From the IMG/VR virus record IMGVR_UViG_3300026488_000018, positions 1-64,000 of that record: a DNA stretch of 64,000 nucleotides; one strand, written 5' to 3'. A program made the translations under genes and the position numbers. The notes under the pieces were generated by a model. The model did no database searches and was not told the DNA's origin. It saw nothing but the letters and a program-made list of their open reading frames with translations. How positions within the stretch are numbered: the first letter of the stretch is position 1; each line of letters opens with the position of its first letter. Shown one piece after another: positions 6,521-64,000 of the stretch. The DNA is from a virus.

Positions 6521-6705
6521 TTTTTATGGACAATTGTTGTGAACTTTACGCGAAGTGGCGGCGGGTTGCAAGAGAATTACATTCGCGTATAAAGATTGTT
6601 GATGGGAAGATCCCGAATGATGCGAAGATTATCATGGCTGAGTATAAAGCATTGTTTATCAAGATGATGTTAAACGGGTGTAAGCCGGAGGGGTGTGATG
6701 GTTGA
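6517..6705 (+). CDS. Small hypothetical protein
   Basis: Overlapping start/stop, SD GGGGTGA. Confidence 0.55.
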   Translation: MIFMDNCCELYAKWRRVARELHSRIKIVDGKIPNDAKIIMAEYKALFIKMMLNGCKPEGCDG

Positions 6706-7751
6706 TGACCAAGATTTACATTCGCCCGGAGGAGAGACCAAAGTATGAGAGCAGGGGTGTTCGCGTTTACGAAGGCCCGAAAGGTGGCTTGTATGTTTTG
6801 AGTGAGGAACTCCCGGATGATTTAAAACGTGAGCTAGGTGAAAGCGCGACGGAAAACATTAGCGAGAAGTACAAGGAGTACGTTGTTCAAGCATTTAATG
6901 ATATTTTAGATAGGTGCGAATCAGTCCACCGCGGCGACGGTATTGTTTTTAAGTTGAAGGACGGCGATAGTATTATCGTCAAGGGTAATACGATTAAAGC
7001 AGGGAAGTGGATAGTTAAGGGTGATAGACTCGACGAACTGGTCGTTTCCTGGGCATTGTTAAGTGAAGCTGTCAGGGTATTGGAGAAGGGTGAAATTGAA
7101 CTTCCCCGGATTGAAGGTGGTTTGTTCGACGTCGGTGGTATTGCTAAGGTTGAAAGTTTAGAGCAGGCGCTGGCTTTGGTGAGCATTTCGCGCGGGTATG
7201 AGTTTATCCGTGATATCAACGAGGATGAGAGTATTGCTGACGCAGTTGAAATGTTTTTCGGCCCGTGGTTGACGCAGAATGTTTTCGAGTTCAGGAGCGA
7301 GAATGTTTCGGTTGATGAGCTGAGGAAGGGTGATTTCTGGCGCGGCGTTGCAAATTTTCTGAGCGTTTATTTTCAGGTGAAGCACGGGCTACGTATTGTT
7401 TTTGAATCGAGCGGGGATATTAAGAGGGCCGCGAATATTGATACTGCGGCGTATTACTGCAAGAGTGAGGTTCATCTCCCGGTTGATATCCCAGGGAAGA
7501 AGGAGTATGGTTATCGCGGTATTGTTTGGCACGAGTTTCAGCATGCGTTATTTGATTTGGTTGAGAGTGGACCGGTTGAGTTCTGGGCGTATCATATGGC
7601 TATGAGTGGGAAGTTAACTGAGTATGCAAAAACAAACGGCAATGAGGCTGCGAGCGAGGCGTGGGCTCTACTTATCGAGGGTAAGGCAGATGACGAGATT
7701 AAGGAGTGGTTTAAACGTTATGTAGAGGAGGTTAAATCATGGATTCAGTAA
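6702..7751 (+). CDS. GPxGG-tagged protein with C-terminal zincin-like metallopeptidase
   Basis: N-terminal VYEGPKGGLYV; AAYY...WHEFQHA and downstream TEYA...EAASEAW. Confidence 0.7.
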   Translation: MMTKIYIRPEERPKYESRGVRVYEGPKGGLYVLSEELPDDLKRELGESATENISEKYKEYVVQAFNDILDRCESVHRGDGIVFKLKDGDSIIVKGNTIKAGKWIVKGDRLDELVVSWALLSEAVRVLEKGEIELPRIEGGLFDVGGIAKVESLEQALALVSISRGYEFIRDINEDESIADAVEMFFGPWLTQNVFEFRSENVSVDELRKGDFWRGVANFLSVYFQVKHGLRIVFESSGDIKRAANIDTAAYYCKSEVHLPVDIPGKKEYGYRGIVWHEFQHALFDLVESGPVEFWAYHMAMSGKLTEYAKTNGNEAASEAWALLIEGKADDEIKEWFKRYVEEVKSWIQ

Positions 7752-7897: not shown

Positions 7898-8218
7898 ATG
7901 GATGAGGGTGACATTGAAGTTGATATTAGCGTGTTACATGCGATGATTTTGGGTTTTATTCTGGGTGCAGTTCAGAGTTATGTGTTAGGTGTTAATTTCT
8001 GGGTTGGCGGATTCATTGGCGCACTGGTGGTTGGCGTTGTTCCGATACTGGGTGTGATTCCTATATTAGGCCCGGTGTTGGCGTATTTTGCGGATAAGTG
8101 GATATTTAACGTCACAGGATTCCCCACCCTGAGCTGGGTATTGTTTTTGAGCATAGGCTTGGCGGTGTTTAATACAATTGTGGTATTGTTTTTGCTGTTG
8201 GCGATATTTGGGGATTAA
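7898..8218 (+). CDS. Hydrophobic membrane protein
   Basis: 3-4 hydrophobic helices by eye. Confidence 0.7.
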   Translation: MDEGDIEVDISVLHAMILGFILGAVQSYVLGVNFWVGGFIGALVVGVVPILGVIPILGPVLAYFADKWIFNVTGFPTLSWVLFLSIGLAVFNTIVVLFLLLAIFGD

Positions 8219-10600: not shown

Positions 10601-11328
10601 TGGTGCTGGCATGGCTTAGGGGTGTTGATGATGCTAAACCGATTTTTCCAACGTACTTAGAGGCGTTTGTTCAGGCACTGAATGGGAAGTATGTTGTTAC
10701 AGGATTGGAAGTTACCTCGAGTGGCAATAACGATTTGGTTATTAATGTTGCGAGTGGCAAGGTTAAGTACGATATGATTGTTTACGATGTAAACGGAACG
10801 AGTTTTACCTTAACAGCAGCCCCCACGGGCACTGTTAGGTATGATGTCATTGTTTGGGATGGTGTAGACCAGGCCCTGAAAGTTTTGGAAGGCACGGGAA
10901 CGTTGAGTTTACCTAACGGGTTGGTTGTGAGTAAGACTGCGCGCCTGGAAGATACACAGATTCCGCTCGCGGTTGTGAGAGTGAATGGTACTAAGGGTTA
11001 TATTGATGATGGAGATATTTTCGATGCGCGCGTCAGCGTCGGGGATTTTGCAACGAATTTAAGAACGGTTGAGGTTAGTTCTGATTATGAGGCAAAATAT
11101 AACGATGCGATGTTGGTTGATACAAGCGCCGGTGATGTGACTATTGTCCTACCCGAGCCTCGCGATGATAACATTGTTCTTGTCAAGAAAACCAGCGCAG
11201 ACAGCAACGCAGTATTGATTATGAGTGTTAACGGCGAGTTGATTGATGGTGAAAATCAGATTGAGATTTACGAACAAGATGTGAGTTTGATGTTTTTTGG
11301 TTCGGGAGGTAAATGGGTGATTATCTAA
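10597..11328 (+). CDS. Tail-fibre-associated structural protein
   Basis: GLEV..VASG..RYD..IPLA..D.R domain plus C-terminal VDTSAGDVTIVLP domain common in fibres. Confidence 0.65.
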   Translation: MMVLAWLRGVDDAKPIFPTYLEAFVQALNGKYVVTGLEVTSSGNNDLVINVASGKVKYDMIVYDVNGTSFTLTAAPTGTVRYDVIVWDGVDQALKVLEGTGTLSLPNGLVVSKTARLEDTQIPLAVVRVNGTKGYIDDGDIFDARVSVGDFATNLRTVEVSSDYEAKYNDAMLVDTSAGDVTIVLPEPRDDNIVLVKKTSADSNAVLIMSVNGELIDGENQIEIYEQDVSLMFFGSGGKWVII

Positions 11329-11340
11329 GGGGGTATTGTC

Positions 11341-12576
11341 ATGGCTGAGATTAAGTTTTGGGACGATGGTATTGTAAAGAAGAAGATTGCGTACAACCCA
11401 AATGTCGGGCAGTTAGGTGTAACTGTTGATGATAATGAGTGGAAATATTTTGATGAACCAGTGCAAGGTTATGATTACATCATTTTCAAGGATGATAATT
11501 ATGTTTATGCCAAGAATGGTAGAACAGGAAAGATTGAATTTAAAGGGGAAGCAGGAGTGGATGATGCGAAAGTGATACAGAATGTATTCGATATAGTTAC
11601 TGAAAACCAGACAATATACGTAAAAGGAAATTTTAAAATATCTACAATAATTCAGGTTAAGACTACATCAATAATTGTTTTTTCAGGTAAGCTAATAGCA
11701 AACGCAGACACGGGTGCAATTTTGAAAGTTTTATCTACAGCTCCAAAAACTATCTTAATTAACCTGTATATAGATGGTAACAACAGAACTTTCGACACAA
11801 GAGGTATTAGAATAGAAGCTACGGATGTAGTACTATTTAATCCACGTGTTGAAAATTGTTTACGGCATGGAATACAAGTATATCACTCATCTCGGACAGT
11901 TGATAATGGGGCAATAATTAATCCTTATGTAAACAATTGTGGAAGTCAAACGGGAGAAGCGAATATTCACATATATAGAGCAATTGGGTACAAAGTCATT
12001 GGTGGATACTCAGCTAACAACCAAGCAGATAACGGACTGTACTTTGCTGAGAGTTATGATTGTATTGCAAAAGGAATTGTTCTTGAGGGTAATGCAACAA
12101 ACGGGGTTCACTCGAATGCAAATGAGTTGGGTAAGGGTAATGTGTTGATTGGAGTTATAGCGAGAAACAATACTAATAGCGGAATTTTGAGTGATTATGC
12201 AGATGAGATAATAGGATGTAAGTGTTACGGAAATGACCACGGGGTATCAGTAGGTTATGGGACAAAAGTCATAGGCGGGGAGTTTTATAACAACAATACT
12301 CATGGGATTTTTAGATATGCCAGTGAGACAATAAGAGCAGATATAACAATTTTAGGAGCTACTTGTAGAAACAATGGTTACGATGGGATTCGCCTCTGGA
12401 ATGTAACACATTGCAAGGTTCTCGGGTGTAATGTGATTGACAACGGAGCATATGGCATACACGGTGCTGGTGGTGAAGACTACTTAATAATTACAAATAA
12501 CATTGTAACAGGAAATACATCAGGAGCGATTTCAGTTGGTGGCTCAAACAATGTTATAGCAAACAATATAACGTAA
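11341..12576 (+). CDS. Beta-helix spike/adhesin 2
   Basis: [12 protein letters not shown] module followed by NN-x-x-GI right-handed beta-helix repeats. Confidence 0.8.
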
Positions 12577-29647: not shown

Positions 29648-29964
29648 TTTTTAAACTTTTCTTTGCAATTTTTTATGGAGGTGTTTCTGTGGAATATTAC
29701 GAGAATGAAATAATAGTTGGCTATTTTAACGTCGGCAAACCACTGATAATCACCCGAGTATTGAATACAGACGGTGAAGTTATAGACGGTTTTTTTAGGT
29801 TTTATTTAGATGGAGACGTTATTTTTGAGATGGATGTTGGCGATGTGGTTTTGATGAGTGATATTTTGAGGGATAACGCAAAAGACTTGTACACAGAGAT
29901 GATTAACGGTGCGGTGTCTCTTTCACAGGATAACGGTTTGAAGGATGATAATATGTATAGGTGA
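29644..29964 (+). CDS. Hypothetical protein (likely GTG ~29689)
   Basis: SD GGAGGTG after TATA at 29648. Confidence 0.55.
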   Translation: MIFKLFFAIFYGGVSVEYYENEIIVGYFNVGKPLIITRVLNTDGEVIDGFFRFYLDGDVIFEMDVGDVVLMSDILRDNAKDLYTEMINGAVSLSQDNGLKDDNMYR

Positions 29965-32150
29965 TAGTGATGAGCCGAAATAAAGAAAGTGCTAGCGCCG
30001 CTGATGCGAATGCAATTTTGGCGAAATATAAAATATCTGTTACCGAGTGTGATGATGTCCCCGCCGAAGAGAGGGTTTATTTAAGTGCTGTTGATTTGGA
30101 GAGATGGGTTAGAAGATATGGCGCAACCGGGTTATGCAGGGGTCCAAGAGGCGGTATTTTTGTTAGGCTTAGTGATTATAAAAAATTGGGTGGGGCGTTA
30201 CAATCTAGTGGGGAAATCGATGAAGATGTTGCACTGAAGAGGTTAGAGAAGAAAAAAGTTAAAGTGGAATTTATCGAAAGTGGTAAATATGATGCAGAAG
30301 TTTATGATATTTTGGGTCAGAATTATATTGTAGCAAAGAATTTTGACATATTTAGTAATGTAATGCAGAAGAAATATTCTGGAAATGGGAAGGAAATAGC
30401 TGCAGCAATGCTGAGAGATATGATTAATAGGTTGTACGGAATGTCTGAAGGCGATATGTTTTTAAGTCAGGATTACAGTAACGTTGATATTAGAAATATA
30501 CACCTGATTGAGAATGGAGTAAAGAGTTTTTACGGGCTGATGATTTTGTCGATGCCGGACGAACTGTTTAATATAATGTGTAAATATGCAAAGACATTAA
30601 AAGATAATGGCAGTGTATCTGCTTCAGTCTTTACTAGAGATGAACAAGAGTATTTGTACAGCATATTTAATGTGAAAAATTGGCAACTAATAGATTTTTC
30701 ATTGAAGAAGTTTTTGTTTACAGGTTATAGTGCGTTTAGTAGATGTGATGATGTGAGTAATATTAGGAGTAATTTGGGTGATGATGTCTGGGATGTTTTG
30801 AGTGGATTGAAAAGTGTTATGGATATAATAAAGGATGATTCCTTTAGTTTGTACAATTTTGGGTTTTTCTTATCGAAGTTTGTAATGGTTAGAAAAAGTA
30901 AAGGGAAAACAACAACAATTTTGAAGACTGATAACATAGGGAATGTTTGGGAAGATTTTTTCAAGTTTAAAAAGAAAGGATTTCTATTGGTTCGTGTTGG
31001 AGATGATTTGAAGAATGCTGTTGATGGTGATAAAACGTTTGTAGAGACTATAGTTAAACCAAGTTTTGTGATATACGGAATTTTGAGAGGCGCAGGCGTT
31101 AGTAGTAAATCAGCATGGGCAGTTTCGAAAGGCGTTAGTGTTATGGCACAGCGAACATACGGCAATTTTAACGGGATTGCACCATATTTGGATTGGTATT
31201 TGCAGAAGTTTGTGACAGGGAACGGACGACCAGTGAGAGTTCCAAATAAGTTTTCTCCAGGGATTGGGAAACTTATAAAGGCGTTGGATAATTTTGTAAC
31301 CCCGATGGATTTGGGTATTTATTTGAACTTTGTGAGAAATTATGTAAAAGAGAGGCACGGTGAACAGGTTGAAGTATATAGGAATTTAAATTTGTTTGAG
31401 GGAAGTATATTTTTAGCAAACAATATCGCCAAAGTAGCCGACAGAGTATTGTTTAAGGATGAAAAGAGAGGGGAGAAGTATTTGAATGCATTGATGAAAG
31501 ACGGTAATGTTATCAAAGGTTATACGTTGTCGACGAGTGTTAATAGAAATGATGTTGAAAAGTTTTTGCAGAGGGGATGGACGAGCGGCGTGTTGGCGAA
31601 GGCAACTATAAAGAGTGACAGCGTTGTTGGCGGGTATTTTGTTGCGGGTGGAGGTTATGTGGATGATTCAGAATTGACAGTTGAAGTTTCACATGATGGA
31701 ATTAAGTTTGAGACAGTTACGATTATACCAAAGAGACCATTGGAAAGGGGCGTATTAAGTCTGGCAGGAAAGGCGGAGAAACCTGAATTGGGCGATTATG
31801 TTAGAGATTTTATGAACTCACTAATATTAGGGATATCACAGGTATCATATGGAAATGCAGATTATGATGAGTATATTGACGCTATATTAGGGGGACTATA
31901 TGTTTATCATAAGGTGGGTGAAAAGCTGTATGGGAATGAATTTATTGAGAAAATAAAGAATGAACATCTGTGGAATAGGGTATTTGAGGCAACTATTATC
32001 GGGATTGGTGGTAACAGAACGATAATTCCAAGCGGGAGCAAAGGTAAATACAGACCATTAAGTGTTTTAAAGTGGAAAGATAAGTTGGTGAGATTTTATA
32101 AGGATATAGGTTTGAACGATGTCGCAGATATAATAGAGAAGGTGGTCTGA
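29961..32150 (+). CDS. GPxGG-tagged large protein with ADP-ribosyltransferase-like domain
   Basis: VPAEERVY...CRGPRGGIFV; R-S-E type motifs VYRNL, TLSTSVN, DDSELTV. Confidence 0.6.
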   Translation: MIVMSRNKESASAADANAILAKYKISVTECDDVPAEERVYLSAVDLERWVRRYGATGLCRGPRGGIFVRLSDYKKLGGALQSSGEIDEDVALKRLEKKKVKVEFIESGKYDAEVYDILGQNYIVAKNFDIFSNVMQKKYSGNGKEIAAAMLRDMINRLYGMSEGDMFLSQDYSNVDIRNIHLIENGVKSFYGLMILSMPDELFNIMCKYAKTLKDNGSVSASVFTRDEQEYLYSIFNVKNWQLIDFSLKKFLFTGYSAFSRCDDVSNIRSNLGDDVWDVLSGLKSVMDIIKDDSFSLYNFGFFLSKFVMVRKSKGKTTTILKTDNIGNVWEDFFKFKKKGFLLVRVGDDLKNAVDGDKTFVETIVKPSFVIYGILRGAGVSSKSAWAVSKGVSVMAQRTYGNFNGIAPYLDWYLQKFVTGNGRPVRVPNKFSPGIGKLIKALDNFVTPMDLGIYLNFVRNYVKERHGEQVEVYRNLNLFEGSIFLANNIAKVADRVLFKDEKRGEKYLNALMKDGNVIKGYTLSTSVNRNDVEKFLQRGWTSGVLAKATIKSDSVVGGYFVAGGGYVDDSELTVEVSHDGIKFETVTIIPKRPLERGVLSLAGKAEKPELGDYVRDFMNSLILGISQVSYGNADYDEYIDAILGGLYVYHKVGEKLYGNEFIEKIKNEHLWNRVFEATIIGIGGNRTIIPSGSKGKYRPLSVLKWKDKLVRFYKDIGLNDVADIIEKVV

Positions 32151-32151
32151 A

Positions 32152-32409
32152 ATGTATAGCGACACGTATTTATACCCAATAGGTGATGATGATTGGGTTT
32201 TTAGTAAAATTACGAACGCGTTGGATATTAGTATTGTTGATAGAGAGGAGTTTAGAGTGTTTGAAGTTGATGAGTTAATTTTAACGGAGTTGATATATTT
32301 GAATCCGTTAATACCAGTGTTTACAGATGGGCGCGGGTATTATGTCGTTGCTAAAAAGGGCAGTGAAGAAGAAAAAATGTTGGAGGTGTTGATTAATGGG
32401 GTTGTTTGA
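32152..32409 (+). CDS. Small hypothetical protein
   Basis: Between the ART-like gene and portal. Confidence 0.6.
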   Translation: MYSDTYLYPIGDDDWVFSKITNALDISIVDREEFRVFEVDELILTELIYLNPLIPVFTDGRGYYVVAKKGSEEEKMLEVLINGVV

Positions 32410-34471
32410 TTTCTTTTTGAATAGGCGTGAGATTAAGAAAAACGGTGATGAACCGGAGGTGGAAATAGAATTTGCGAAGGATGGAACATTTAATGCATTA
32501 ATGTATGCAGGAACAGATAATTTGTTTGATATAAAGGGTCCACTCGATTTTAGGGGGATAAATAAGAGTGCTGTTCAGGCGGGCGTAAGCGGGTTAGCGT
32601 TAGTCCCAATTTTACCGTTTAGTTACGAGTATGTAGAAAGCCTTTATTACAATAGCGATATACTGAGAACGGTTATAACGGTATTGTTGAATGAGACGTT
32701 CGGGAATGGGTTGAGTGTTAAACCGAAGTTTACGAAGAAGTGTTTGGTATGCGGTGCAACGTATGATGAGGATGTCGATGTGTGTGAGGCTTGTGGGTCA
32801 CATAGATTGGTGGGCCCCAATGAGAATGAACGGAAAATTTTAGAGAAGTTCATAGAAAAGGCGAATATTAATAATCAACCCTTGATTGATGTGCTGAGGG
32901 ATTTAGACCACAATTTGAATGTATTTGATAACGCGTATTTGATTGTTAGAAAGAAATACGAGTATAATGACAATGGTGATTTGATAGCAGAAAAACCACT
33001 TGAGATATACAGCGGTGACCCGAAGCGTATTTATTTGGTTATGAGTAGTGATGGTCGTCCGGGTCTTACGCGCGATGGTAAGAATATGGTTTTTGTCTGT
33101 CCTGAGCACAGAGATGAGCCAGTATTGGTTCCAGTAGAGAAGTTATTGGAAGACCCTGATTATATTCCAAGGTGTCCGAAGTGCGGGCGGAAGATGCATA
33201 AGGCTGTAGCAGTTTATGATGTAGGAGGAAGCAAGTATTTTTTTATTGATGGTGAAATTCTTCATTTGAAGAAGTTTACGCCCGGTATTGGATACGGGTA
33301 CCCGCCGATAATTACACTGTTGAAGAAATTGCTTATATTGATTAAGCAGGATTCGTTTATTTTAATGGCTTATCATATGCAGAGACCGCCGCGCGGGCTC
33401 CTTGTGTTGAGAGCAGATAGGAATGCTGTTGCTAAGGCATTTATGACTGCGCGCAGTGAGGCTTATAAGAACCCATGGAATATTGTGCCGTTGGTTATTT
33501 CAGGCCCGGAGAAGGTTGTTGGGAAACGTGTAGTTGAGTGGCTTGATTTGAGTTATAAACCAGATGAAGTGACATTTACCGCGTATCGCAATGAGGTAAG
33601 ACGCGTTGTTGCAAGTATGTGGCAAATTAGCCCAATTTTCCAGGGTGAGGTTAATACTGGTATTTCTAATGAGGGGTTACAAGTTACGATAACAAATAGA
33701 GCGATTATGCGTGAACAGGCTTTGATAAATAATGTGTTGAAGTGGCTGGTTAAGCAGTTGAAGGTTAATGATTGGGTTATAGAGTTAAATCCCAATGAGC
33801 CAATGGATATTTCACGCAAGCTCGACAGAATACGCCGCCGTATTGATATAGTAAAGGAGCTGGAAGAGCTCGGGTATGAAGTTGAGTTAATCCCAACGGG
33901 TGTTGACGGTATTGACTTTAAGTTCGATGGGAAGATTGAACCAAGTAAGAGGTTGAAGAGAGCGATTGAATTGTATGCAAAGAGGAAGGGGTATAGGATT
34001 AATGTTGATGATTTTATTGAAGTAATTGATGTTCTGCCGAAGGTAGGTTTAACGTTTGAGTCGTTTAAGAGGTTAATGTTGCTTGCTGAGTTGGTTGGCG
34101 GGGTTGAGAACATTATTAGAAATGTTGAGCAGGTGTTGAATATTCCACCGCTTGAGCAGATTTTGTATAGGATAAAGTATCCAGACGCTGCGAGTAATTA
34201 CGAGCAGGGTGGTGTACAGATGCTGCAAGATAACCAACAAGAAGTATTATCCCAGGAGCAGGGTATTGAAGAGAACAATGAAGGGGGTTCGTTAACGTTT
34301 GAGGATTGGCTAAATGAATTATTAAATGAAAGTGACGAAGTAGAAGGACAGCCAGCAGAGAGCGGTGTTAAAATGTTTAATTCAGAGGAGGGTGAGAAGT
34401 TTGAGGGGCAACCTGAGATGAATAGAAAGGAGATGCCCGGTATGGAGCATCTATACGAGAGAAGAGAGTGA
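32396..34471 (+). CDS. Portal protein with Zn-ribbon insertions
   Basis: LNVFDNAYL, EILH, GYGYPPI, PPRGLL motifs; CLVC..CEAC and CPEH..CPKC inserts; upstream of protease. Confidence 0.85.
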   Translation: MGLFDFFLNRREIKKNGDEPEVEIEFAKDGTFNALMYAGTDNLFDIKGPLDFRGINKSAVQAGVSGLALVPILPFSYEYVESLYYNSDILRTVITVLLNETFGNGLSVKPKFTKKCLVCGATYDEDVDVCEACGSHRLVGPNENERKILEKFIEKANINNQPLIDVLRDLDHNLNVFDNAYLIVRKKYEYNDNGDLIAEKPLEIYSGDPKRIYLVMSSDGRPGLTRDGKNMVFVCPEHRDEPVLVPVEKLLEDPDYIPRCPKCGRKMHKAVAVYDVGGSKYFFIDGEILHLKKFTPGIGYGYPPIITLLKKLLILIKQDSFILMAYHMQRPPRGLLVLRADRNAVAKAFMTARSEAYKNPWNIVPLVISGPEKVVGKRVVEWLDLSYKPDEVTFTAYRNEVRRVVASMWQISPIFQGEVNTGISNEGLQVTITNRAIMREQALINNVLKWLVKQLKVNDWVIELNPNEPMDISRKLDRIRRRIDIVKELEELGYEVELIPTGVDGIDFKFDGKIEPSKRLKRAIELYAKRKGYRINVDDFIEVIDVLPKVGLTFESFKRLMLLAELVGGVENIIRNVEQVLNIPPLEQILYRIKYPDAASNYEQGGVQMLQDNQQEVLSQEQGIEENNEGGSLTFEDWLNELLNESDEVEGQPAESGVKMFNSEEGEKFEGQPEMNRKEMPGMEHLYERRE

Positions 34472-34514: not shown

Positions 34515-37151
34515 ATGGAAGAACTGAAAAAAATTGATATTCTGGGGAGTAGTAACGATAGATTGATTGCGGGTTGGGCGAGCGTTGAGGTTGTAGATAG
34601 GCAGGGACAGATTGTTCCAATTGATGAACTAAATAAGGCGCTTTTGAGGTATAGTATTAGAGGCGCACCGCTTAATTATGGGCATAAAAACCACCAGGTT
34701 GGGCGTGTTATTAATTGGTATATAATGAAACACCCGAAGACGGGTAAGTGGGGTGTTTACATTATAGGCTACATATTTAGCGGTGAGAAGATATATGATG
34801 TTGTTTGGGAGGCGATTAAAGACGGAACTCTAACAGGTTTCAGCATTGCCGGTATTGCAAATAGGAAGGAGTATGATATTGTTGATGGGAGGAGTGTTGA
34901 GGTGTTGAGAGATATCACAATTACAGAGATAAGTGTGGTTGAGAAGCCAGCGAACCCCGAAGCTCTTATTGAGGAGATTAATAAGTTTGCTAAGAGCGGA
35001 GATGATTCGGTTATCCGTATAATGGGTGCAAGTTTTACTAAGGGTATTATTGATGATGCGGTTAATGTTGCCAAGGAGAACGGTGTTAACGAAGAAATTG
35101 TCGCTGATATAGTCGAAGAGGCACTGAGAAAGTTCATCTGCGGTATTGCCAAGCAGTATGACAGCAAGGTGATGGCAGTATTTGATAATGAGAAGGATGC
35201 GTTTGCGTATGCCATTGAGAAGGGAGGATTTGTGATTCCGAGTTATGATGGAAAGTTTTTAGTTGTAAGAGATAAAGCACATTTTGATGTTAAGGAAGAC
35301 GAGAAGATGTATATAGAAGAGTTGGATATGGGCGTAGAGAAGGTTAAAGTTGATGTTGATATGAAAGATGAAGAATTTGAGAAGAGTGAGGGCCCGGTTA
35401 CAGTTAGTTCAGAGGGAATGATGAACCCTACTTATGGAAGCAAGTGGTTAAAGAATAAGGACGAGAAGTCGAATGTGATAGGCGAAGTGATTATGAATCT
35501 TATCAGGATTAAGAAAGAGTTTAAGGATAATGAGTCGGTGTATTATTTGATTGATGATATGATTTTTAAGCTGCACGATTTGGTTGGTGGTGATGAGATG
35601 GTTAAAAGTATTGAAAGTGATGATGATTTGAGGAGAATTTTGGTAGGTCTCCTCGATGAGGCTAAAAAATTGAGGGGATTTGTGTATAAACATACAGAAA
35701 GTCTGGCATATAAAGGTATGGCTGATGATATTGTTAAGACGTTTGAACATCTGATTGAGGAACTTGATAGCGGGCAGATTGAGGTTGCTAAGGGTGAACT
35801 TACAAAGGATGAACTGTTGAGAATATTAAGAGGAATTCTTGATGAAGCAAAGAAGATTGCTGGTTTTATTAGAGACCACACTGAGAGCGGGGCATACAGG
35901 GGAATGGCTGAAGACGTTGTAAATGGTTTAAGGGCGCTCATTGGCGACGTTGAACGCAGTATTATTCAGGTTAGGAAGGATAGTGGTGTAGCTGATGATG
36001 ATATGAAGATTAAGGAAGAAGCAGAGAAGCTTAAGACAAAAATCGAGGAGATAAACGAGGTGTTTAGTAAGCAGGATGAGGGCAGGAATAGGATGATGAT
36101 GATGTACGGAAGTATTATGCAGAGCATTGTCGATGAATTGGAAGCTATAATCTTTTATGCTGACGTCGCGGCAATGTTTGATATGTTTGGGTATGACGAA
36201 ATTGCGGCGAATGTGAGGAGTGTTATTAGTGAGGAGCTAGAGCATGTTAGGGAGTTTACGGCGATGCTCGAGAAACTTGCTATTGGCGATAAACCAATTA
36301 AGGAAATTGAAACAAATGAGGAAGTTGCAGTTCCCACCCCCGACCAGGGTATTGTTGAAGTGAGCAAGAAGGAAAGAGGTGAGCACAAGAAGTGTATGGA
36401 GCGGTATTATAATTTTGAAGAAGGCCATTTCAAGGGTAGAGAGGGAACGGGTGAAAGGTTCGATAATTGTGTAAAAGCCCAGATGCATTGTAATGGGAAG
36501 AGTAGAGAAGAGGCTGAAAAGATATGTGGTATGATTGCTCGCAGGAAAGGTTATGCTGGCGGAAAGAAGGTTAAGAAGGGTAAGATTGATGAAATAAAAG
36601 CGAGACTTGAAGAAGTTAGAAAGGCGGCGAAGAAGAACTGTCGGAAGCGGTATTATGATGAAGATAGAGGACATTTCCGCGAGATGACTTGTCCAGATGA
36701 CCCAAATGAGAAAAGTAGGTTCTGTGGTTGTGTCAGGTATCAGATGAACTGCAATGGTAAGTCTTTGGAGGAAGCTAAGGAGATATGCGGATATATAAGG
36801 TTCCATGTTAAGAAGAGTGTTGAAACTGAACTTAATATGCTTCTTGTGAAGCTGAGGGTTGCAAAGGCAAGGAAGACTGGGCACCGTAAGGGTAAGACTG
36901 AAGCACAGCGTCGAAGGGAGAGAAAACAGCAAGGTCCTGGTCGTCCTAAAGACCCTTGTCGACAGCGTTTTGTTGATAAGAATGGTTTTTACAGAAAGAT
37001 GACTGACCCAAAGAACCCAAGTAAACCCGCGAGCGAGTTTTGGGGGTGTGTGAGATATGCAATGGAATGCAAGAAAATGTCATACGAAGAAGCGAAGAGT
37101 TGGTGTGGTAAGGCGAAGTACGATGCTGTTGAGGGCGGCGGTGAGGCGTGA
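34515..37151 (+). CDS. HK97-type prohead protease with long multi-domain C-terminal extension
   Basis: IAGWASVEVVDRQG, YGH, GFSIAG, EISVVEKPANPEA; followed by helical repeats, ferritin-like domain and Cys repeats. Confidence 0.88.
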   Translation: MEELKKIDILGSSNDRLIAGWASVEVVDRQGQIVPIDELNKALLRYSIRGAPLNYGHKNHQVGRVINWYIMKHPKTGKWGVYIIGYIFSGEKIYDVVWEAIKDGTLTGFSIAGIANRKEYDIVDGRSVEVLRDITITEISVVEKPANPEALIEEINKFAKSGDDSVIRIMGASFTKGIIDDAVNVAKENGVNEEIVADIVEEALRKFICGIAKQYDSKVMAVFDNEKDAFAYAIEKGGFVIPSYDGKFLVVRDKAHFDVKEDEKMYIEELDMGVEKVKVDVDMKDEEFEKSEGPVTVSSEGMMNPTYGSKWLKNKDEKSNVIGEVIMNLIRIKKEFKDNESVYYLIDDMIFKLHDLVGGDEMVKSIESDDDLRRILVGLLDEAKKLRGFVYKHTESLAYKGMADDIVKTFEHLIEELDSGQIEVAKGELTKDELLRILRGILDEAKKIAGFIRDHTESGAYRGMAEDVVNGLRALIGDVERSIIQVRKDSGVADDDMKIKEEAEKLKTKIEEINEVFSKQDEGRNRMMMMYGSIMQSIVDELEAIIFYADVAAMFDMFGYDEIAANVRSVISEELEHVREFTAMLEKLAIGDKPIKEIETNEEVAVPTPDQGIVEVSKKERGEHKKCMERYYNFEEGHFKGREGTGERFDNCVKAQMHCNGKSREEAEKICGMIARRKGYAGGKKVKKGKIDEIKARLEEVRKAAKKNCRKRYYDEDRGHFREMTCPDDPNEKSRFCGCVRYQMNCNGKSLEEAKEICGYIRFHVKKSVETELNMLLVKLRVAKARKTGHRKGKTEAQRRRERKQQGPGRPKDPCRQRFVDKNGFYRKMTDPKNPSKPASEFWGCVRYAMECKKMSYEEAKSWCGKAKYDAVEGGGEA
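35612..35980 (+). repeat. Two tandem ~60-aa helical repeats in the protease extension
   Basis: DDLRRILVGLLDEAKKLRGFVYKHTESLAYKGMADD vs DELLRILRGILDEAKKIAGFIRDHTESGAYRGMAED. Confidence 0.85.
36387..37125 (+). repeat. Three Cys-rich ~55-aa repeats in the protease extension
   Basis: C..R(Y/F)...G.(F/Y)...F..CV...M.C...S.EEA...CG repeated three times. Confidence 0.85.
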
Positions 37152-59775: not shown

Positions 59776-59798
59776 TTTTTAAACTTTTCTTTTGTATT
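59776..59798 (+). promoter_or_regulatory. Viral promoter consensus upstream of the phosphatase/kinase operon
   Basis: TTTTTAAA-N10-GTATT. Confidence 0.7.
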
Positions 59799-59814
59799 AT
59801 TTACGGTGGTGTAA

Positions 59815-59988
59815 ATGTATGTAGTTGAGAAAGACGGTAAGGTGGTAGGCGCGTTTAACGCTTACAATGTGTTTTTCATTGATGAAGTGCTTAAGATGAA
59901 TTTTATCGAGATTGCTAATAGGTACGGTATTGATGAGGTTATAATGTGGCTCAGAAAACTGGGGTATACTGTTAAGGAGGTTGATTGA
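59815..59988 (+). CDS. Small hypothetical protein (57 aa)
   Basis: Manual translation MYVVEKDGKVVGAF...LRKLGYTVKEVD. Confidence 0.6.
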   Translation: MYVVEKDGKVVGAFNAYNVFFIDEVLKMNFIEIANRYGIDEVIMWLRKLGYTVKEVD

Positions 59989-60630
59989 ATGGGGAGGTTT
60001 TTGTTTGTTAGTGATTTACATGTGAATGACGAAAATTATGAGCGGACTTTGGAAGGACTGAATAACATAGTATCGAAATATGATGTCGATTTTATAGTTA
60101 GCGGGGGCGATAACGGTGAGGTGGATAATAATTTTCTGGATAGTCTGAATGCTTGCTTTTATTCGATATATGGTAACCATGATACGATTGAGTGGGTGAA
60201 AGATTTTAACGGACATTGGCTACATGATGGTATGCATGTGATTGGTGATTTTTCACTGTTGGCATGGAATGGGATTTTTGGGTTTAGTGAAAAATACCCC
60301 AAGTGGTACCATCGTAGCTTAGATGATTTTATTCGTTTTGGGTATAGCTGGGCTAACGCAAGACCAGATGTGTTTGTAAGTCATGAGATACCATACTATA
60401 ACAGGTTTGGCAAGCAAGTACAGGAATATTTGAGTGTTATGAATTACGGTGTAAAGATGATAAAGCCGAGAGTATGGCTTAATGGCCACATCCACAGAGG
60501 CGTTATAATAGACAGAGACACATTCCAGGGTATTGTTTATGTGAATGTCGAGAGTAAGGGAAAGAAAGTTAGCGGTGTTATCGTTGAAAAAGATGGTGAT
60601 GAAATTAATATAACAATTGTAGAGGGATGA
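59989..60630 (+). CDS. Calcineurin-like metallophosphoesterase
   Basis: SDLH, GGDN, GNHD, SHE.P, GHIH motifs. Confidence 0.9.
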   Translation: MGRFLFVSDLHVNDENYERTLEGLNNIVSKYDVDFIVSGGDNGEVDNNFLDSLNACFYSIYGNHDTIEWVKDFNGHWLHDGMHVIGDFSLLAWNGIFGFSEKYPKWYHRSLDDFIRFGYSWANARPDVFVSHEIPYYNRFGKQVQEYLSVMNYGVKMIKPRVWLNGHIHRGVIIDRDTFQGIVYVNVESKGKKVSGVIVEKDGDEINITIVEG

Positions 60631-60633
60631 CGG

Positions 60634-60831
60634 ATGACTGTGGTAGTGTATCGTTGGTATTATGGTGAGTATAAAGAGTTGTTTAGGATTACAGGCAATA
60701 AAGTGTCGAATGAGTATGGAGAGATGTTTTTGAGAGAATTAGGGATACCAATGAATGAGGATGCGGTATTTAAGAGTCTTAAATCGAATGGGGTTTATTT
60801 AGTTGAAAGGGTGGGTGATGAGAGTGATTGA
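60634..60831 (+). CDS. Small protein, paralogue of 60818
   Basis: LF.(I/V).G...SN...RE.G...E..(V/I).K.L..N..YL pattern. Confidence 0.6.
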   Translation: MTVVVYRWYYGEYKELFRITGNKVSNEYGEMFLRELGIPMNEDAVFKSLKSNGVYLVERVGDESD

Positions 60832-61000
60832 GGTTGTACGTATTATCGGTGATAAAGTTATTCCTCTTTTTACTGTTGATGGTGATGAGTTTAGTAATAT
60901 AGAGCTTGCGCGCGAGTATGGGTTTGACGGCATGGATGAAGAGAAAATCAAGAAGCTTCTCTGGGATAATCCATATCTTAATTATAGGGAGGTGGAGTGA
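60818..61000 (+). CDS. Small protein, paralogue of 60634
   Basis: Same pattern; SD GGGTGGGTG. Confidence 0.6.
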   Translation: MRVIEVVRIIGDKVIPLFTVDGDEFSNIELAREYGFDGMDEEKIKKLLWDNPYLNYREVE

Positions 61001-63345
61001 TGCAGGGTGCAGAAAAATTCCAAGGGAAGTCTTATTCAGAAGTTCCACCCGAGTATAGGTATTATGTTGATGAAGAAGAGGAGAGTAAATTTAGGGCAAT
61101 GGGTGTTCCTATATATGAGGGTCCACATGGTGGGAAGTTTATAGATAGACGCGATTTGATTAGACACGGTGAGAGAAATCCAATTGAAGTGTCAAGTACG
61201 AATATTATTAAGTTGAAACAGTATTACGACGCTTTATTGGAACGAGGCAGTATTGATTCGGATGAGATGAAGAATGTGATAGCGGCGTTGAATTGGGTAA
61301 GATTTAAGGGAATGGCCCGCAAGGTGGGTGATTTGAGTGTTATTGATGATAAAATTGCTAAGGTCGAGAAATTAGATATAAATTCGTTAAATAGGGATAT
61401 TTTGTTTAAAGTTCAGTTTAAGGACGGAACATACGCGTATATGAAGAAGCTTTTTCCTGATGAAATGATAGAGGTTAGGGTTGCCGGTATTACAGGACAT
61501 ATTGTTAGTAATATGTTGGAGAAGATTGTTGAAAGTGATGTTTTGAAGAAGCTATTACCGAAAGGGCGTTTGGTTAATTACAACGGCGATTGGTATTTTA
61601 TGACAGATGAAGTGTATGGTGTTTTGGGTGTTAACGCGAGGGATAAGCTGAAGGATATTGATTTCAATAGTGACGACATGATAGATTTGATGGCGGGTTT
61701 GATTGTAATTGGGTTAGGTGATTTACATTTTGCTAATGTATTCTATGAGCCAAACGCAAAGATAATAATTCCATTTGATTTTGATTTCGCAGGAAGTAAC
61801 ATTAAAATTACAAATTTTGGACCACTTGATTTTATTGCGAGGGTTGATAAGGATAAGTTTAAGGATTTGGATTTCAGGAAACTTGCCGATAAAGTTGTTG
61901 AAAAATTTGAAAAATATAACGGTGAACTACGTCAGTATTTGTCAGATGAAGAAGATGTATTGAAGACGTATATTAATGCAGATGAGCGGGACGTTGATTT
62001 TGCGATTGAGAGTTTTTATGAGTGGTTTAATAGACTTGGAAAAATTGTTCAGATGTATAAGGATGGAATGATAAATGGTTTTGGGATGTTAGTTAATGTT
62101 GGTTCGGCGAGACCAAAAGTTAATATTAGGGCGTTTATCGGCGATGATTTATTTAATGAGTTGATAAATGATTTTTCGAAAGCCGCAAAGGTACCGGCTG
62201 AGTATAGGTTGTATATTAATAACTGGCAGGCCCAACGATTTAGGCGCAAGGGTATTAAAGTTTACAGAGGCCCGCGTGGTGGGCTGTATGTTGATATCAG
62301 AGAGTTAAAGAATAGAGGTGTTAATACAGACGAAGTTAAGGTGGTTGAGGAGTTTAAACCGGAGTTACTGGAGGATTCTAAGAATTTGAATGCTATTATT
62401 GCCAGGGTTGCAGAAGAACCAAAATTACGTGTGGCCGTTGTTAACGAATTGAGGAAGGGTATTGATTACATGATAGAGAAACTTATTGATTACAAGTTAG
62501 GGCAGAATAGGGAGGAGTATTTGTTACATTATCGCAGAGCAGTGAATGCAGCATTTGTGCTAAATGCGTTGAATGGGAAAGCAATGGCGAATGATATGAA
62601 CAACGATAATTACAAGGTGGTATCGTTTAGTGATGTTGGTGCGCAACCGGGTGTTATAAATGTGACATCGATGTTTATAGGAGAATTTCTGGATGGGTCA
62701 CATATTTTTGCAAAGGAGTTGACGGATGATGCCGAGTGGGTTGTAAATAATTATGTTGCCCCAGCGTTGATTAAGGTATTGGTTGGTCGCGAGTATTCGG
62801 ACTTTATTCCAACACCGCGTATTATAGTGAAGGATGGTAGAGTGTTTGTTGGGACGAGTGAGGTGTATGGAGTTACTGGCATGGATTTAATGGGTATTCA
62901 AGATATTGAGTTAAAGAACGTGGATAGGTTCATGGATTTTCTCGCCGCTCACTATGTTGTTGGTTTGGATGATAGCCACGAGTCAAATTACTTCATAGAT
63001 CCAGAGAACGGAGTATTTGTACAGTTTGATGTTGATTATGCGTTTATGAGGGGTGGAACGGAGCTTCATATAGGTACTATGGTGGAAAAATTAGCAGAGT
63101 GGTACGGTTTTGATGCAACGGAGGTAAAGAGAAGAGGGATAGAGAAGTTGTTACAAAAAGAAAAGGAGATAATGTTCACTATAAGAGCGTTACGCGCGTC
63201 GTTAGATGTTTATGATATGCCCGAGGATAAGAAGGAGATAATGAAGAAGGGTATTGATAGAGCAGGCGCGTTTATGTTTGAACTTATCAGGAAAGCAAAG
63301 AAAGACCCAGACGAAGCTATACGGTATTTGGACAGCAAAATTTGA
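60997..63345 (+). CDS. Tandem GPxGG-tag + HipA/PI3K-like kinase protein (two modules)
   Basis: Module 1: AYMKK, GDLHFANV, PFDFDFA; module 2: IFAKE, DDSHESNY, QFDVDYA; each preceded by VP.EYR.Y...GP.GG. Confidence 0.8.
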   Translation: MMQGAEKFQGKSYSEVPPEYRYYVDEEEESKFRAMGVPIYEGPHGGKFIDRRDLIRHGERNPIEVSSTNIIKLKQYYDALLERGSIDSDEMKNVIAALNWVRFKGMARKVGDLSVIDDKIAKVEKLDINSLNRDILFKVQFKDGTYAYMKKLFPDEMIEVRVAGITGHIVSNMLEKIVESDVLKKLLPKGRLVNYNGDWYFMTDEVYGVLGVNARDKLKDIDFNSDDMIDLMAGLIVIGLGDLHFANVFYEPNAKIIIPFDFDFAGSNIKITNFGPLDFIARVDKDKFKDLDFRKLADKVVEKFEKYNGELRQYLSDEEDVLKTYINADERDVDFAIESFYEWFNRLGKIVQMYKDGMINGFGMLVNVGSARPKVNIRAFIGDDLFNELINDFSKAAKVPAEYRLYINNWQAQRFRRKGIKVYRGPRGGLYVDIRELKNRGVNTDEVKVVEEFKPELLEDSKNLNAIIARVAEEPKLRVAVVNELRKGIDYMIEKLIDYKLGQNREEYLLHYRRAVNAAFVLNALNGKAMANDMNNDNYKVVSFSDVGAQPGVINVTSMFIGEFLDGSHIFAKELTDDAEWVVNNYVAPALIKVLVGREYSDFIPTPRIIVKDGRVFVGTSEVYGVTGMDLMGIQDIELKNVDRFMDFLAAHYVVGLDDSHESNYFIDPENGVFVQFDVDYAFMRGGTELHIGTMVEKLAEWYGFDATEVKRRGIEKLLQKEKEIMFTIRALRASLDVYDMPEDKKEIMKKGIDRAGAFMFELIRKAKKDPDEAIRYLDSKI

Positions 63346-63391: not shown

Positions 63392-63655
63392 ATGGAGGAC
63401 GATGTTATTTTTACTGAGATTGAAAAGGTGATAGAACAGAAGAAGAAACGATACGAGCGGGCTCTACTTGAAGAGGAGGAAGCAGGTAGAACGTTAACAA
63501 GAGTTACAGATTTAGAGAATTCTCTTATTGATGCGTATATTAAGTACCTCAGGATGAAGTATTGGGTGAAAGAACATAAAGTTGTTGCAAGTAAAGATGC
63601 TTTACGCGAGATTGACGAATTTTTTGAACTTGTCGAACAGGATGATACTGATTGA
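63392..63655 (+). CDS. Helical protein, possible terminase small subunit
   Basis: Position upstream of TerL; helical. Confidence 0.4.
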   Translation: MEDDVIFTEIEKVIEQKKKRYERALLEEEEAGRTLTRVTDLENSLIDAYIKYLRMKYWVKEHKVVASKDALREIDEFFELVEQDDTD

Positions 63656-63752
63656 TAGTTGCGAGGATAACTGATGGATGGGCTGTTAGCGGGATTACTA
63701 AGAGTGGCGGTGTTTGTGAGAAGAAACCGGAATCCTTATGGAGGGAATATGT

Positions 63753-64000
63753 ATGAGCAAGAAAGTTGTTGTTGATGAAGAATATCTAAAAAAGAAAGAA
63801 AAACTCAGGGAGTATGCCAGAAAACATCCAGTCGAGTTTTTTAAATGGATTACAGGGTTTGAACCTCGCCCGTTTCAGAAAAAATTTATGAAGACTAATA
63901 AGAGGCGTGTTATTGTTGTTACATCACGTCAGATTGGAAAATCGGAAGTTACTGCAGTTAAAGCAATTTGGAAAGCATGGTTGTTTGATAATCAATACAT
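63753..64000 (+). CDS. terL: Terminase large subunit (N-terminal part, truncated by window end)
   Basis: Manual translation: HPVEFF, PRPFQ adenine-binding motif, Walker A SRQIGKS. Confidence 0.88.
   Translation, partial: MSKKVVVDEEYLKKKEKLREYARKHPVEFFKWITGFEPRPFQKKFMKTNKRRVIVVTSRQIGKSEVTAVKAIWKAWLFDNQY

Follow-up and report, generated by a model that had tools for sequence, protein, structure and literature searches.

A tag-bearing twin kinase-like protein of an archaeal tailed virus as a possible virion-delivered effector

We analyzed a stretch of viral DNA of 64,000 nucleotides (nt), hereafter the window, which forms the first 64 kb of the 89,720-bp IMG/VR virus record IMGVR_UViG_3300026488_000018 (completeness 76%). 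The locus of interest, at positions 59,776 to 63,345, ends in an open reading frame (ORF) for a 782-amino-acid (aa) protein built of two similar units, each with a ~45-aa tag, a helical linker and a predicted atypical kinase core. The same tag heads other putative enzymes of this virus group and is fused to portal-like or MuF-like head proteins in relatives. The reading we favor, giving it close to an even chance, is that the 782-aa protein is a tagged, virion-delivered twin kinase effector of an archaeal tailed virus. An initial annotation of the locus had instead proposed a writer/eraser switch, in which a metallophosphoesterase reverses the marks of the kinase and two small paralogous proteins inhibit it. 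Our observations bear out that annotation in part, and its effector-kinase component holds at the level of the predicted fold. The 782-aa protein comprises the following elements.

60997 to 63345, + strand: the 782-aa tandem protein (781 aa from the ATG at 61000), with two units of tag, helical linker and atypical kinase core
61033 to 61167, + strand: tag copy at the head of kinase unit 1 (VPPEYR...YEGPHGG...)
61354 to 62076, + strand: kinase core 1, with approximate bounds taken from homology to unit 2; contains K150
61711 to 61737, + strand: core 1 loop, GLGD242-x4-N247
61774 to 61788, + strand: core 1 motif FD261-x-D263-F
62182 to 62316, + strand: tag copy at the head of kinase unit 2 (VPAEYR...YRGPRGG...)
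62590 to 63315, + strand: kinase core 2 (model residues 144-385); contains K573
62962 to 62988, + strand: core 2 loop, GLDD659-x4-N664
63025 to 63039, + strand: core 2 motif FD678-x-D680-Y

The two halves of the 782-aa protein are homologous (BLASTP 81 bits, expectation value (E) 2e-21, 25% identity over 297 columns). Searching 1,835,955,588 representative proteins exhaustively by phmmer (E ≤ 1e-3), we obtained 11 proteins including the query itself, and only two others share the kinase part. P0005 (758 aa, 37% identity; encoded on a contig of 4222 bp) has two units like the 782-aa protein, and P0006 (388 aa; contig of 1410 bp) has one. The kinase-like domain is known, then, in five copies from three proteins among the 1.84 billion representatives searched. 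Seven of the 11 proteins match just the first ~45-150 residues of a unit, which is the tag region. One more, P0014, is a low-complexity repeat protein and was set aside as spurious.

Other searches with the 782-aa protein gave little. No relevant Pfam (E ≤ 1), PHROG, NCBIfam or PADLOC match explains it, a PDB sequence search returned one irrelevant match (E 1.3), a word-index protein search found nothing beyond the protein itself, and blastn and tblastn against phage records gave no match. Viral and metagenome scans with P0005 and alignment A2 yielded nothing, and the unit alignment A3 picked up no cellular relative across 185,579 species, each represented by one genome. A profile of the three single units had no matches and missed P0006 too, so that search is uninformative. 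We found no description of the tandem kinase family in the literature searched. A survey of archaeal Caudoviricetes, in the part of its text available, names thymidylate kinase, ADP-ribosyltransferases (ARTs) and dual-specificity phosphatases, and no HipA/PI3K-like kinase.

HipA-type kinases carry a catalytic Asp, an Asn five residues on and a downstream metal-binding Asp; the catalytic loop of PI3K/PI4K kinases reads G-x-x-D-x-H-x-x-N and is followed by an Asp of the D-F/x-G type. The HipA-type motif is present in all five copies (D242/N247/D261 and D659/N664/D678 in the 782-aa protein). Each copy keeps G-L-x-D and then the Asn, with the Asp-Asn spacing shorter by one residue in the C-terminal half of P0005, and each has Asp-x-Asp (D261/D263, D678/D680) following two strands. 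Also kept in 5/5 copies are a Lys on what is predicted to be the third strand (K150/K573) and a hinge-like E-V-(Y/F)-G motif. Both units of the 782-aa protein have a PI3K/PI4K-type loop as well (GLGDLHFAN...FDFDF and GLDDSHESN...FDVDY). The initial annotation had pointed out D-x-H-x-x-N and a following Asp in both kinase domains. This is right for the two units here (GDLHFAN, DDSHESN), and the Asp is found in 5/5 copies, but the His is not family-wide, as the other three copies read DVNFYN, DDSIHN and DVFVHN. In three of the five copies, namely P0006 and the two C-terminal units, a G-x-x-x-G stretch that may serve as the nucleotide loop stands before the Lys strand. Unit 1 may bind nucleotide differently or be regulatory.

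We modeled unit 2 (394 aa) by AlphaFold from the four-row alignment A3, obtaining a predicted local distance difference test (pLDDT) score of 67.0 and a predicted template-modeling score (pTM) of 0.67. Comparison with HipA, CtkA and PI4K by Foldseek had been suggested along with the initial annotation; run against the PDB with this model, it did match kinases of those kinds, at moderate strength. Among the rows listed were solely PI3K, VPS34, HipA, CtkA, PI4K and CylM, with two matches at E ≤ 1e-3 (the best being VPS34, 8.7e-4) and with HipA at E 2.5e-3 and CtkA at E 4.9e-3. Re-scoring the top 1000 Foldseek matches by VIA-align, in which folds missed by Foldseek cannot appear, we find the highest similarity to Helicobacter pylori CtkA (Z 8.7, root-mean-square deviation 4.2 Å, 191 residues, model residues 144-385). 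Fam20A (8.1), HipA (8.0), MavQ (7.5), PI4KIIIb (7.4) and HipT (7.0) scored below it.

In BFVD, four matches had E ≤ 1e-3. The top one comes from Halorubrum sodomense tailed virus 2 (HSTV-2; E 1.6e-4) and is annotated as a PI3K/PI4K catalytic domain-containing protein. An 1100-aa HHTV-1 protein was among the leading matches, and giant phage proteins annotated as portal or ADP-ribosyltransferase appeared in lower rows. The ESM Atlas model of the 782-aa protein has HipA_C, PI3_PI4_kinase and three Phage_Mu_F clusters among its ten structural neighbors (TM 0.48-0.52), and its neighbors include HipA-like clusters headed by HTH_17/excisionase domains. These models give moderate support to a HipA/CtkA/PI3K-like kinase fold of the second half. 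As for the two HipA/PI3K-like kinase domains of the initial annotation, the halves are homologous and the fold of unit 2 is moderately supported, but no HipA or PI3K family profile matches the sequence.

The tag heading each unit has the pattern VP-x-E-Y-R-x-Y ... G-(V/I)-x-V-Y-x-G-P-x-G-G-x-(Y/F)-(V/I)-D, and the window holds four copies of it. Two of them head the kinase units, and the other two lie in separate genes.

6705 to 6821, + strand: third tag copy, at the N-terminus of a 349-aa ORF (6702-7751) with an HEFQH motif
30054 to 30188, + strand: fourth tag copy, in a 729-aa ORF (29961-32150) that is ART-like by eye only

The 729-aa tagged ORF is separated by one 85-aa ORF from the portal-like gene at 32396-34471. 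An AlphaFold model of the tag, made from a ten-row tag alignment, is confident (pLDDT 87.6) and has the order beta-alpha-beta-beta-alpha; because of this confident model, the tag is predicted to be an autonomous mini-domain. The only family touching the tag is PF08789, the PBCV-specific basic adaptor (cut-off 20.4 bits), which scores 12.1 bits in the 782-aa protein, 20.0 in P0005 and 21.4, above the cut-off, in P0007. The matches cover ~15 residues, and weak matches were also found in 5/14 control genomes, none above the cut-off.

Scanning IMG/VR with tag alignments, we found four further virus groups with tagged proteins. In these scans, the alignment A7 leaves out two of the nine copies of A6 (those at 30048 and 6705 of the window), the full set being too variable. 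One 46.8-kb record, L003, has terminal repeats and is rated complete. It encodes a protein of 856 aa that matches portal (E 3.4e-6) as well as MuF (E 1.1e-5) and has a tag at its end; the next gene encodes P0007, in which each of two tags stands before a domain that we read as ART-like (DRAT E 0.072). The portal-like protein of L004 (1070 aa, E 2.5e-7) extends into a tag and then an HEYLH domain; its gene is followed by that for P0012 (tag and ART-like domain, DRAT E 2.3e-4) and then by a MuF-like gene. The complete (100%) 57,952-bp genome G001, a relative that shares the terminase of the window (phmmer 3.1e-120), has three tags, one of which (seen also in L064) comes immediately after a MuF match (E 1.2e-5), its frame running into a domain of the ART-like type. 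In L056-L058, a tagged protein of 826-838 aa is encoded four genes 5′ of a MuF-like gene, with genes for a 94-aa ORF, a 267-aa phosphoesterase, a 110-aa ORF and a portal-like protein in between. The label "ART-like" rests on the weak DRAT matches and on an R-S-E pattern read by eye, and HExxH was also read by eye. A search for the kinase core gave no match in G001, G002 or G003 (0/3), though such an empty answer proves little. These arrangements are consistent with one small tag marking a changing set of enzymes that is tied physically or genomically to head proteins, with the kinase as a rare cargo.

Two observations were made beside this survey of tags. The tagged 826-aa protein P0033 (L057, 7584-10061) has a C-terminal domain with no Pfam match, which is reminiscent, by its motifs only, of amidoligase-type enzymes and would add another kind of cargo to those borne by the tag. 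In three Bacteroidota contigs (L059-L061, ~8001-8072), the only ones brought up by the genome scan with the tag, the match is an RGPxGGFYVD stretch in 142-163-aa frames read by eye as Rrf2-type regulators. These share only 18-24 residues with the tag and were treated as chance or convergence. In them, the stretch would form the wing of a winged helix, which could hint that the tag hairpin contacts DNA, or could again be convergence.

By its gene content, the window belongs to an archaeal tailed virus. It encodes a family-B DNA polymerase, a primase large subunit, Cas4-like and ERCC4 nucleases, QueC, QueE-like, QueD and FolE proteins, a Hel308-like helicase, a portal-like protein and a prohead protease. 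The sole sequencing run containing the stretch, a DNA run that is probably its source, is labeled as a hydrothermal vent metagenome; no RNA run was listed as containing it. Every large ORF of the window is on the + strand, with a GC skew of +0.31 to +0.51 in each 2-kb window; the skew is extreme and uniform over positions 1-64000.

In the reading that we favor, the tag would be the common handle of the host-directed enzymes of this virus group, heading ART-like, HExxH and other domains. It would bring the enzyme into the virion, possibly by holding DNA as this is packaged. From there, the twin kinase would reach the host cell together with the viral genome, or would at any rate serve in early take-over, phosphorylating host proteins. 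The metallophosphoesterase and the 57-aa ORF1 at the start of the locus would be backbone genes that merely share the transcript, and ORF4, directly upstream of the kinase gene, may partner a kinase core in the manner of HipS. Kinase activity, a protein substrate, packaging and delivery are what we infer here.

Several results weigh against this reading. The 782-aa protein has no MuF or portal domain, in contrast to the tagged portal or MuF proteins of L003, L004 and L064, and no kinase of its family was seen fused to a head protein. Its gene is outside the head module, between the ribonucleotide reductase and terminase genes and ~26 kb from the portal gene. The portal and MuF Pfam scores in the relatives are all below the gathering cut-offs. 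The tag has no significant fold match in the PDB (Foldseek best E 0.86; VIA-align over 48,161 chains, best Z 3.8), and because its net charge ranges from -2 to +10, not every copy is an evident DNA binder. The PF08789 matches in a six-frame search of the genome, three in number and all on tags, reach 14.6-15.4 bits and so remain below the cut-off.

On the side of the kinase, the unit 2 model is moderate only: the Foldseek TM is ~0.3, a Z of ~8 is rated "middling" by VIA-align's own note, and the catalytic loop (269-276) and the stretch 289-304 have pLDDT < 50. No HipA_C, HipA_2, Couple_hipA or PI3_PI4 profile matches the sequence (no Pfam match, PF00454 included, at E ≤ 1 in the 782-aa protein; 0 matches to PF07804 and PF20613 at E ≤ 10 in six frames of the genome). 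The G-x-x-x-G stretch is missing from both N-terminal units, that is, from unit 1 here and from the N-terminal half of P0005.

The place of the gene, beside nucleotide-metabolism genes and away from the head module, would suit an unpackaged kinase that acts inside the cell during take-over, like the T7 kinase, which is a precedent for a phage kinase (PMC5512222, in the part of its text available). The tag would then target DNA or a host factor, as in HipH/YjjJ-type kinases headed by a helix-turn-helix (HTH) domain. Among the weak VIA-align rows for the tag are small Xis/MerR/BldC-like (excisionase-type) DNA binders (Z 3.2-3.7), and the HTH_17/excisionase-headed clusters among the Atlas neighbors of the kinase point the same way. 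However, the tag is covalently part of portal or MuF proteins in three relatives, which is hard to explain by host targeting alone. We regard this explanation as unlikely, though it deserves to be kept in view.

The initial annotation had described a promoter site followed by a 57-aa ORF, a metallophosphoesterase, two small ORFs and a large ORF, and the order and coordinates of these features are all in place.

59777 to 59798, + strand: archaeal-type promoter motif TTTTAAA-N10-GTATT, 17 nt 5′ of the ORF1 ATG
59815 to 59988, + strand: ORF1, 57 aa, no known family
59989 to 60630, + strand: metallophosphoesterase, 213 aa, catalytic motifs intact
60634 to 60831, + strand: ORF3, 65 aa, no known family
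60818 to 61000, + strand: ORF4, 60 aa, with a longer TTG start at 60803; candidate HipS-like partner (a lead only)
63738 to 64000, + strand: 5′ part of the gene for the terminase large subunit, the next large gene past the kinase, with its end at 65153 of the genome

The promoter motif TTTWAAA-N10-GTATT has six matches in the window, on the + strand only, against 0.14 expected from shuffles, and none between 59798 and 64000. A Shine-Dalgarno-like GGTGGTG is at 59805-59811. Since the virus is archaeal, a scan for sigma-70 promoters and terminators was disregarded. The junctions of the five ORFs abut or overlap; ORF3 and ORF4 overlap by 14 nt, and the ORF4 stop TGA overlaps the kinase ATG. It is plausible that the five genes form one transcription unit.

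Such a unit invites the idea of a self-contained writer/eraser operon, in which the phosphoesterase reverses the marks set by the kinase, and ORF3 and ORF4 are cognate inhibitors, one per core. The 213-aa ORF is indeed a metallophosphoesterase, as had been annotated (PF00149 41.4 bits against a cut-off of 21.5), and the motifs DxH, GD, GNHD, HE and GHxH are invariant in 10/10 members of its family. It has nine homologues in the protein collection (30-62% identity); none of them is encoded on a contig of 4222 bp, the length of the P0005 contig, which is weak evidence at most. PPP-type Ser/Thr protein phosphatases have the signature GDxHG, GDxVDRG and GNHE. The 213-aa protein reads SDLHVN, GGDNGE and GNHD and had no PDB protein-phosphatase match at E ≤ 1, and we rejected this assignment. 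Its closest named subfamily is the YfcE phosphodiesterase (TIGR00040; E 6.6e-6, 26.3 bits against a cut-off of 56.25).

Profile scans fetched 47 phosphoesterase loci (44 metagenomic and three viral, with L006 and L049 being the same contig), and the loci of the window's own genome, L001 and L002, were left out of the locus ORF set. Searching the 47 loci with the kinase-unit profile, we found no kinase core in any of them, and 24/47 have at least 2.8 kb of downstream sequence. The order of genes in the window is queC, queE-like, queD, folE, reductase, ORF1, phosphoesterase, ORF3, ORF4, kinase, 87-aa ORF and terminase. In L050/G001 and in L005, the phosphoesterase (43-44% identity) lies between folE with a 113-aa ORF and three small ORFs of 70, 82 and 51 aa, and further downstream follow a 359-aa ORF, a phosphoribosyltransferase, queC, a 397-aa ORF and the terminase. 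In G001, the phosphoesterase thus occupies the syntenic place (folE ... terminase) in a genome with three tagged proteins and no kinase match. Because it keeps the same genomic place in kinase-less relatives, the phosphoesterase is a backbone gene of the virus lineage and not a dedicated eraser, and the kinase gene looks like an insertion beside it.

Taking these results together, we consider the writer/eraser operon rather improbable. It draws on the five genes with abutting or overlapping starts behind one promoter motif, on the short HipT/CtkA type of the kinase cores, on a second, unrelated phosphoesterase beside the tagged effector in L056-L058, and on the likeness of ORF4 to HipA N-terminal domains described below. 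Against it stand a phosphoesterase that is kinase-less in 47/47 loci, including the same genomic place in a complete relative, and that is not PPP-like and is nearest to a phosphodiesterase. The switch put forward in the initial annotation is not supported. Nor is the co-occurrence of kinase and phosphatase on which it depended, as 0/47 phosphoesterase loci contain the kinase, a count taken in the one direction from phosphoesterase to kinase. The idea also meets difficulty in the small ORFs, considered next.

Apart from this, the 7-deazaguanine cluster (queE-like, queD, folE ... queC) surrounds the phosphoesterase in L050 (7049-11932) and in L005, along with the family-less 359-aa ORF and the phosphoribosyltransferase. 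A role of the phosphoesterase in the 7-deazaguanine pathway or in nucleotide metabolism is conceivable, and action on phosphoproteins as well would be compatible with all that we found. The second phosphoesterase noted above (267 aa, PF00149 E 9.1e-7; L057, 10335-11135, also in L056 and L058) has the gene of the tagged 826-aa effector on one side and the portal-like gene on the other. With an hhalign probability of 6.5%, it falls outside the family of the window's phosphoesterase; its position may be due to chance, and we did not accept it as support for a conserved pairing.

ORF1, ORF3 and ORF4 had no Pfam, PHROG, NCBIfam or PADLOC match, no match to an HTH family, and no relative in the fetched loci (E ≤ 0.01). 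ORF3 and ORF4 had been called paralogues, which we could not uphold. BLASTP gives no alignment between them at E ≤ 100, in a phmmer comparison of the genome's 244 + strand ORFs the three small ORFs match one another at E 0.35-0.63, and shuffle tests yield local z values of 3.3, 1.8 and 3.1 and global z values of 1.8-2.4. A shared pattern among the small ORFs is at best marginal. By eye, all three appear to have a hairpin, then helices, then a terminal strand.

The two clusters nearest to the ESM Atlas model of ORF4 (pLDDT 0.81) are one of HipA proteins, reached via their N-terminal Couple_hipA domain (PF13657), and one of the HipA N-terminal domain standing alone. They align with 56 and 54 of the 60 residues at query-based TM values of 0.58 and 0.56, though the tool itself cautions that a TM > 0.5 says little about proteins this short. 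The other eight Atlas rows are unrelated folds at TM 0.46-0.55. In HipBST, the gene for the short kinase HipT is directly preceded by that for HipS, a homologue of the HipA N-subdomain that serves as antitoxin by neutralizing HipT (PMC8262856, in the part of its text available). ORF4 has the corresponding position. However, PF13657 finds nothing in the genome at E ≤ 10, which leaves ORF4 with no sequence support as a HipA N-domain, and ORF4 has 60 aa as compared with ~100 for HipS. We treat the HipS-like nature of ORF4 as a lead, a doubtful one.

Combining this lead with the tag gives a split HipA-like system that is delivered by the virion. The cores would be silenced in the producing cell by ORF4 (perhaps also ORF3), loaded into the capsid through a DNA-binding tag homologous to the chlorovirus adaptor, and become active on ejection as the partners are left behind. 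We hold this elaborate version to be improbable.

We hold it equally improbable that the fold serves another substrate or chemistry, for instance that of a lipid or small-molecule kinase (PI4K/MavQ-like), a pseudokinase or a non-kinase transferase. VPS34, PI4KIIIb, MavQ and Fam20A do score on par with the protein kinases, unit 1 has no glycine-rich stretch, and the His by the catalytic Asp is not conserved. Yet the best single match and the short-core build are those of the protein kinases CtkA and HipT, and the co-tagged enzymes look protein-directed (ART-like and HExxH, the latter by eye only). Least probable is a viral toxin-antitoxin (TA)-like module for addiction or, against rival viruses, for superinfection exclusion or abortive infection: the classical role of HipA-type kinases is that of TA toxins (PMC8262856, available text) and small ORFs do lie directly upstream, but the tag ties the protein to the delivered-enzyme set of the virus, no HTH antitoxin was detected, PADLOC found nothing, and no cellular relative turned up in one genome each of the 185,579 species.

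Among known systems, HipT of HipBST, HipA and CtkA are the best structural matches of unit 2. As in HipT and CtkA, the viral core is short, is devoid of N-subdomain-1 of HipA, and has the Asp-x4-Asn loop with a downstream metal-binding Asp. A small ORF, a candidate HipS-like partner by its Atlas model, lies just upstream. Unlike HipA-type kinases, the viral protein has no sequence-profile match to HipA_C, HipA_2 or Couple_hipA, and unlike HipT, HipA and CtkA, it has two cores per chain, each behind a tag and a helical linker. Its gene is viral, whereas HipBST is a chromosomal TA locus, and no HipB-like HTH protein was shown.

The top BFVD match also comes from an archaeal tailed virus. Gene 16 of HSTV-2 encodes 490 aa with a PF00454 match (E 1.5e-5, 25.5 bits, below the cut-off of 27.1) and lies in the structural module, between capsid and tail-sheath genes; from the equal length and the PF00454 match, we take L7TJZ0 to be its product. 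Aligning it with the window kinase, hhalign pairs the catalytic loops only (24 columns, 38% identity, probability just 2%). Unlike the 782-aa protein, the HSTV-2 protein is single-domain and, by eye, has no GPxGG tag. The genome of HSTV-2 (L069), a cultured halovirus, encodes this PI3K/PI4K-like protein at 10647-12119 and an annotated dual-specificity protein phosphatase at 35377-35826. One archaeal virus has both a kinase-like protein and a phosphatase here, but their genes are 23 kb apart and on opposite strands.

Virion-carried, host-directed enzymes are well described in bacteriophages, among them T4 Alt, MuF toxins and polyvalent proteins. The tagged proteins resemble MuF- or portal-fused and polyvalent phage effectors in that host-directed enzymes are joined to, or stand beside, portal or MuF proteins in the tag-bearing relatives. 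They differ from MuF effectors in that the shared module is a small separate tag and not MuF, and in that the kinase gene is away from the head genes. Phage enzymes joined to MuF or portal domains (ARTs, kinases, peptidases) are regarded as head-packed effectors delivered with the DNA, and such effectors are scarce in archaea, as far as the available text of Iyer et al. 2017 (PMC5512222) goes. The kinase clade described there is a truncated Ser/Thr/Tyr kinase, unlike the HipA/PI3K-like window kinase.

A second comparison is with the chlorovirus PBCV-1, in which A278L and A282L, each a kinase with the PF08789 adaptor, are abundant, virion-packaged, DNA-associated proteins (PMC3281028, available text). 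Here too, a viral kinase-like protein carries a small GPxGG-type, adaptor-like module, and the PF08789 matches fall exactly on the tags. The chlorovirus kinases differ in being classical protein kinases of a eukaryotic virus, and the short PF08789 match is below the cut-off in the window. A kinship of the tag with the chlorovirus adaptor is possible on this sequence likeness. As to the phosphoesterase, the 213-aa protein has all motifs of YfcE/MJ0936-type metallophosphoesterases, with a score far below the subfamily cut-off.

On the reading that the evidence supports best, the locus would follow, in a form of its own, the known practice of phages of sending host-modifying enzymes along with their particles. 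To this practice it would add a hyperthermophile-type archaeal tailed virus whose enzymes share one small tag, a cargo in the form of a twin HipT/CtkA/PI3K-like kinase, whose family has three members, and possibly a connection with the adaptor found in chlorovirus virion kinases. Particular to the locus are the tandem kinase of this almost unique family, its place outside the head module, the possible HipS-like partner and the possible relation of the tag to the chlorovirus adaptor. The locus offers a test case for the substrates of HipA-like kinases in archaea. If ORF4 were HipS-like, it would show how a virus keeps its kinase harmless until delivery. If the split system were true, the antitoxin left behind would be the trigger for an injected toxin, and archaeal and eukaryotic viruses would have a packaging handle in common. 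For annotation, the adjoining phosphoesterase should not be read as the partner of the kinase.

The genes flanking the locus were also assigned. The 1065-aa ORF directly upstream is a class II-like ribonucleotide reductase (PDB 1xje, E 9.8e-43). The kinase gene ends 390 bp upstream of the terminase gene, which is assigned as the large subunit by PDB 4zni (E 1.3e-11) and T4 gp17 (E 3.6e-10). Between these two genes lies an ORF for a charged 87-aa protein (63392-63655) with no family match. By phmmer it weakly matches (E 0.0053) the 397-aa ORF found ahead of the L050 terminase gene, and it could encode a small terminase subunit or be unrelated.

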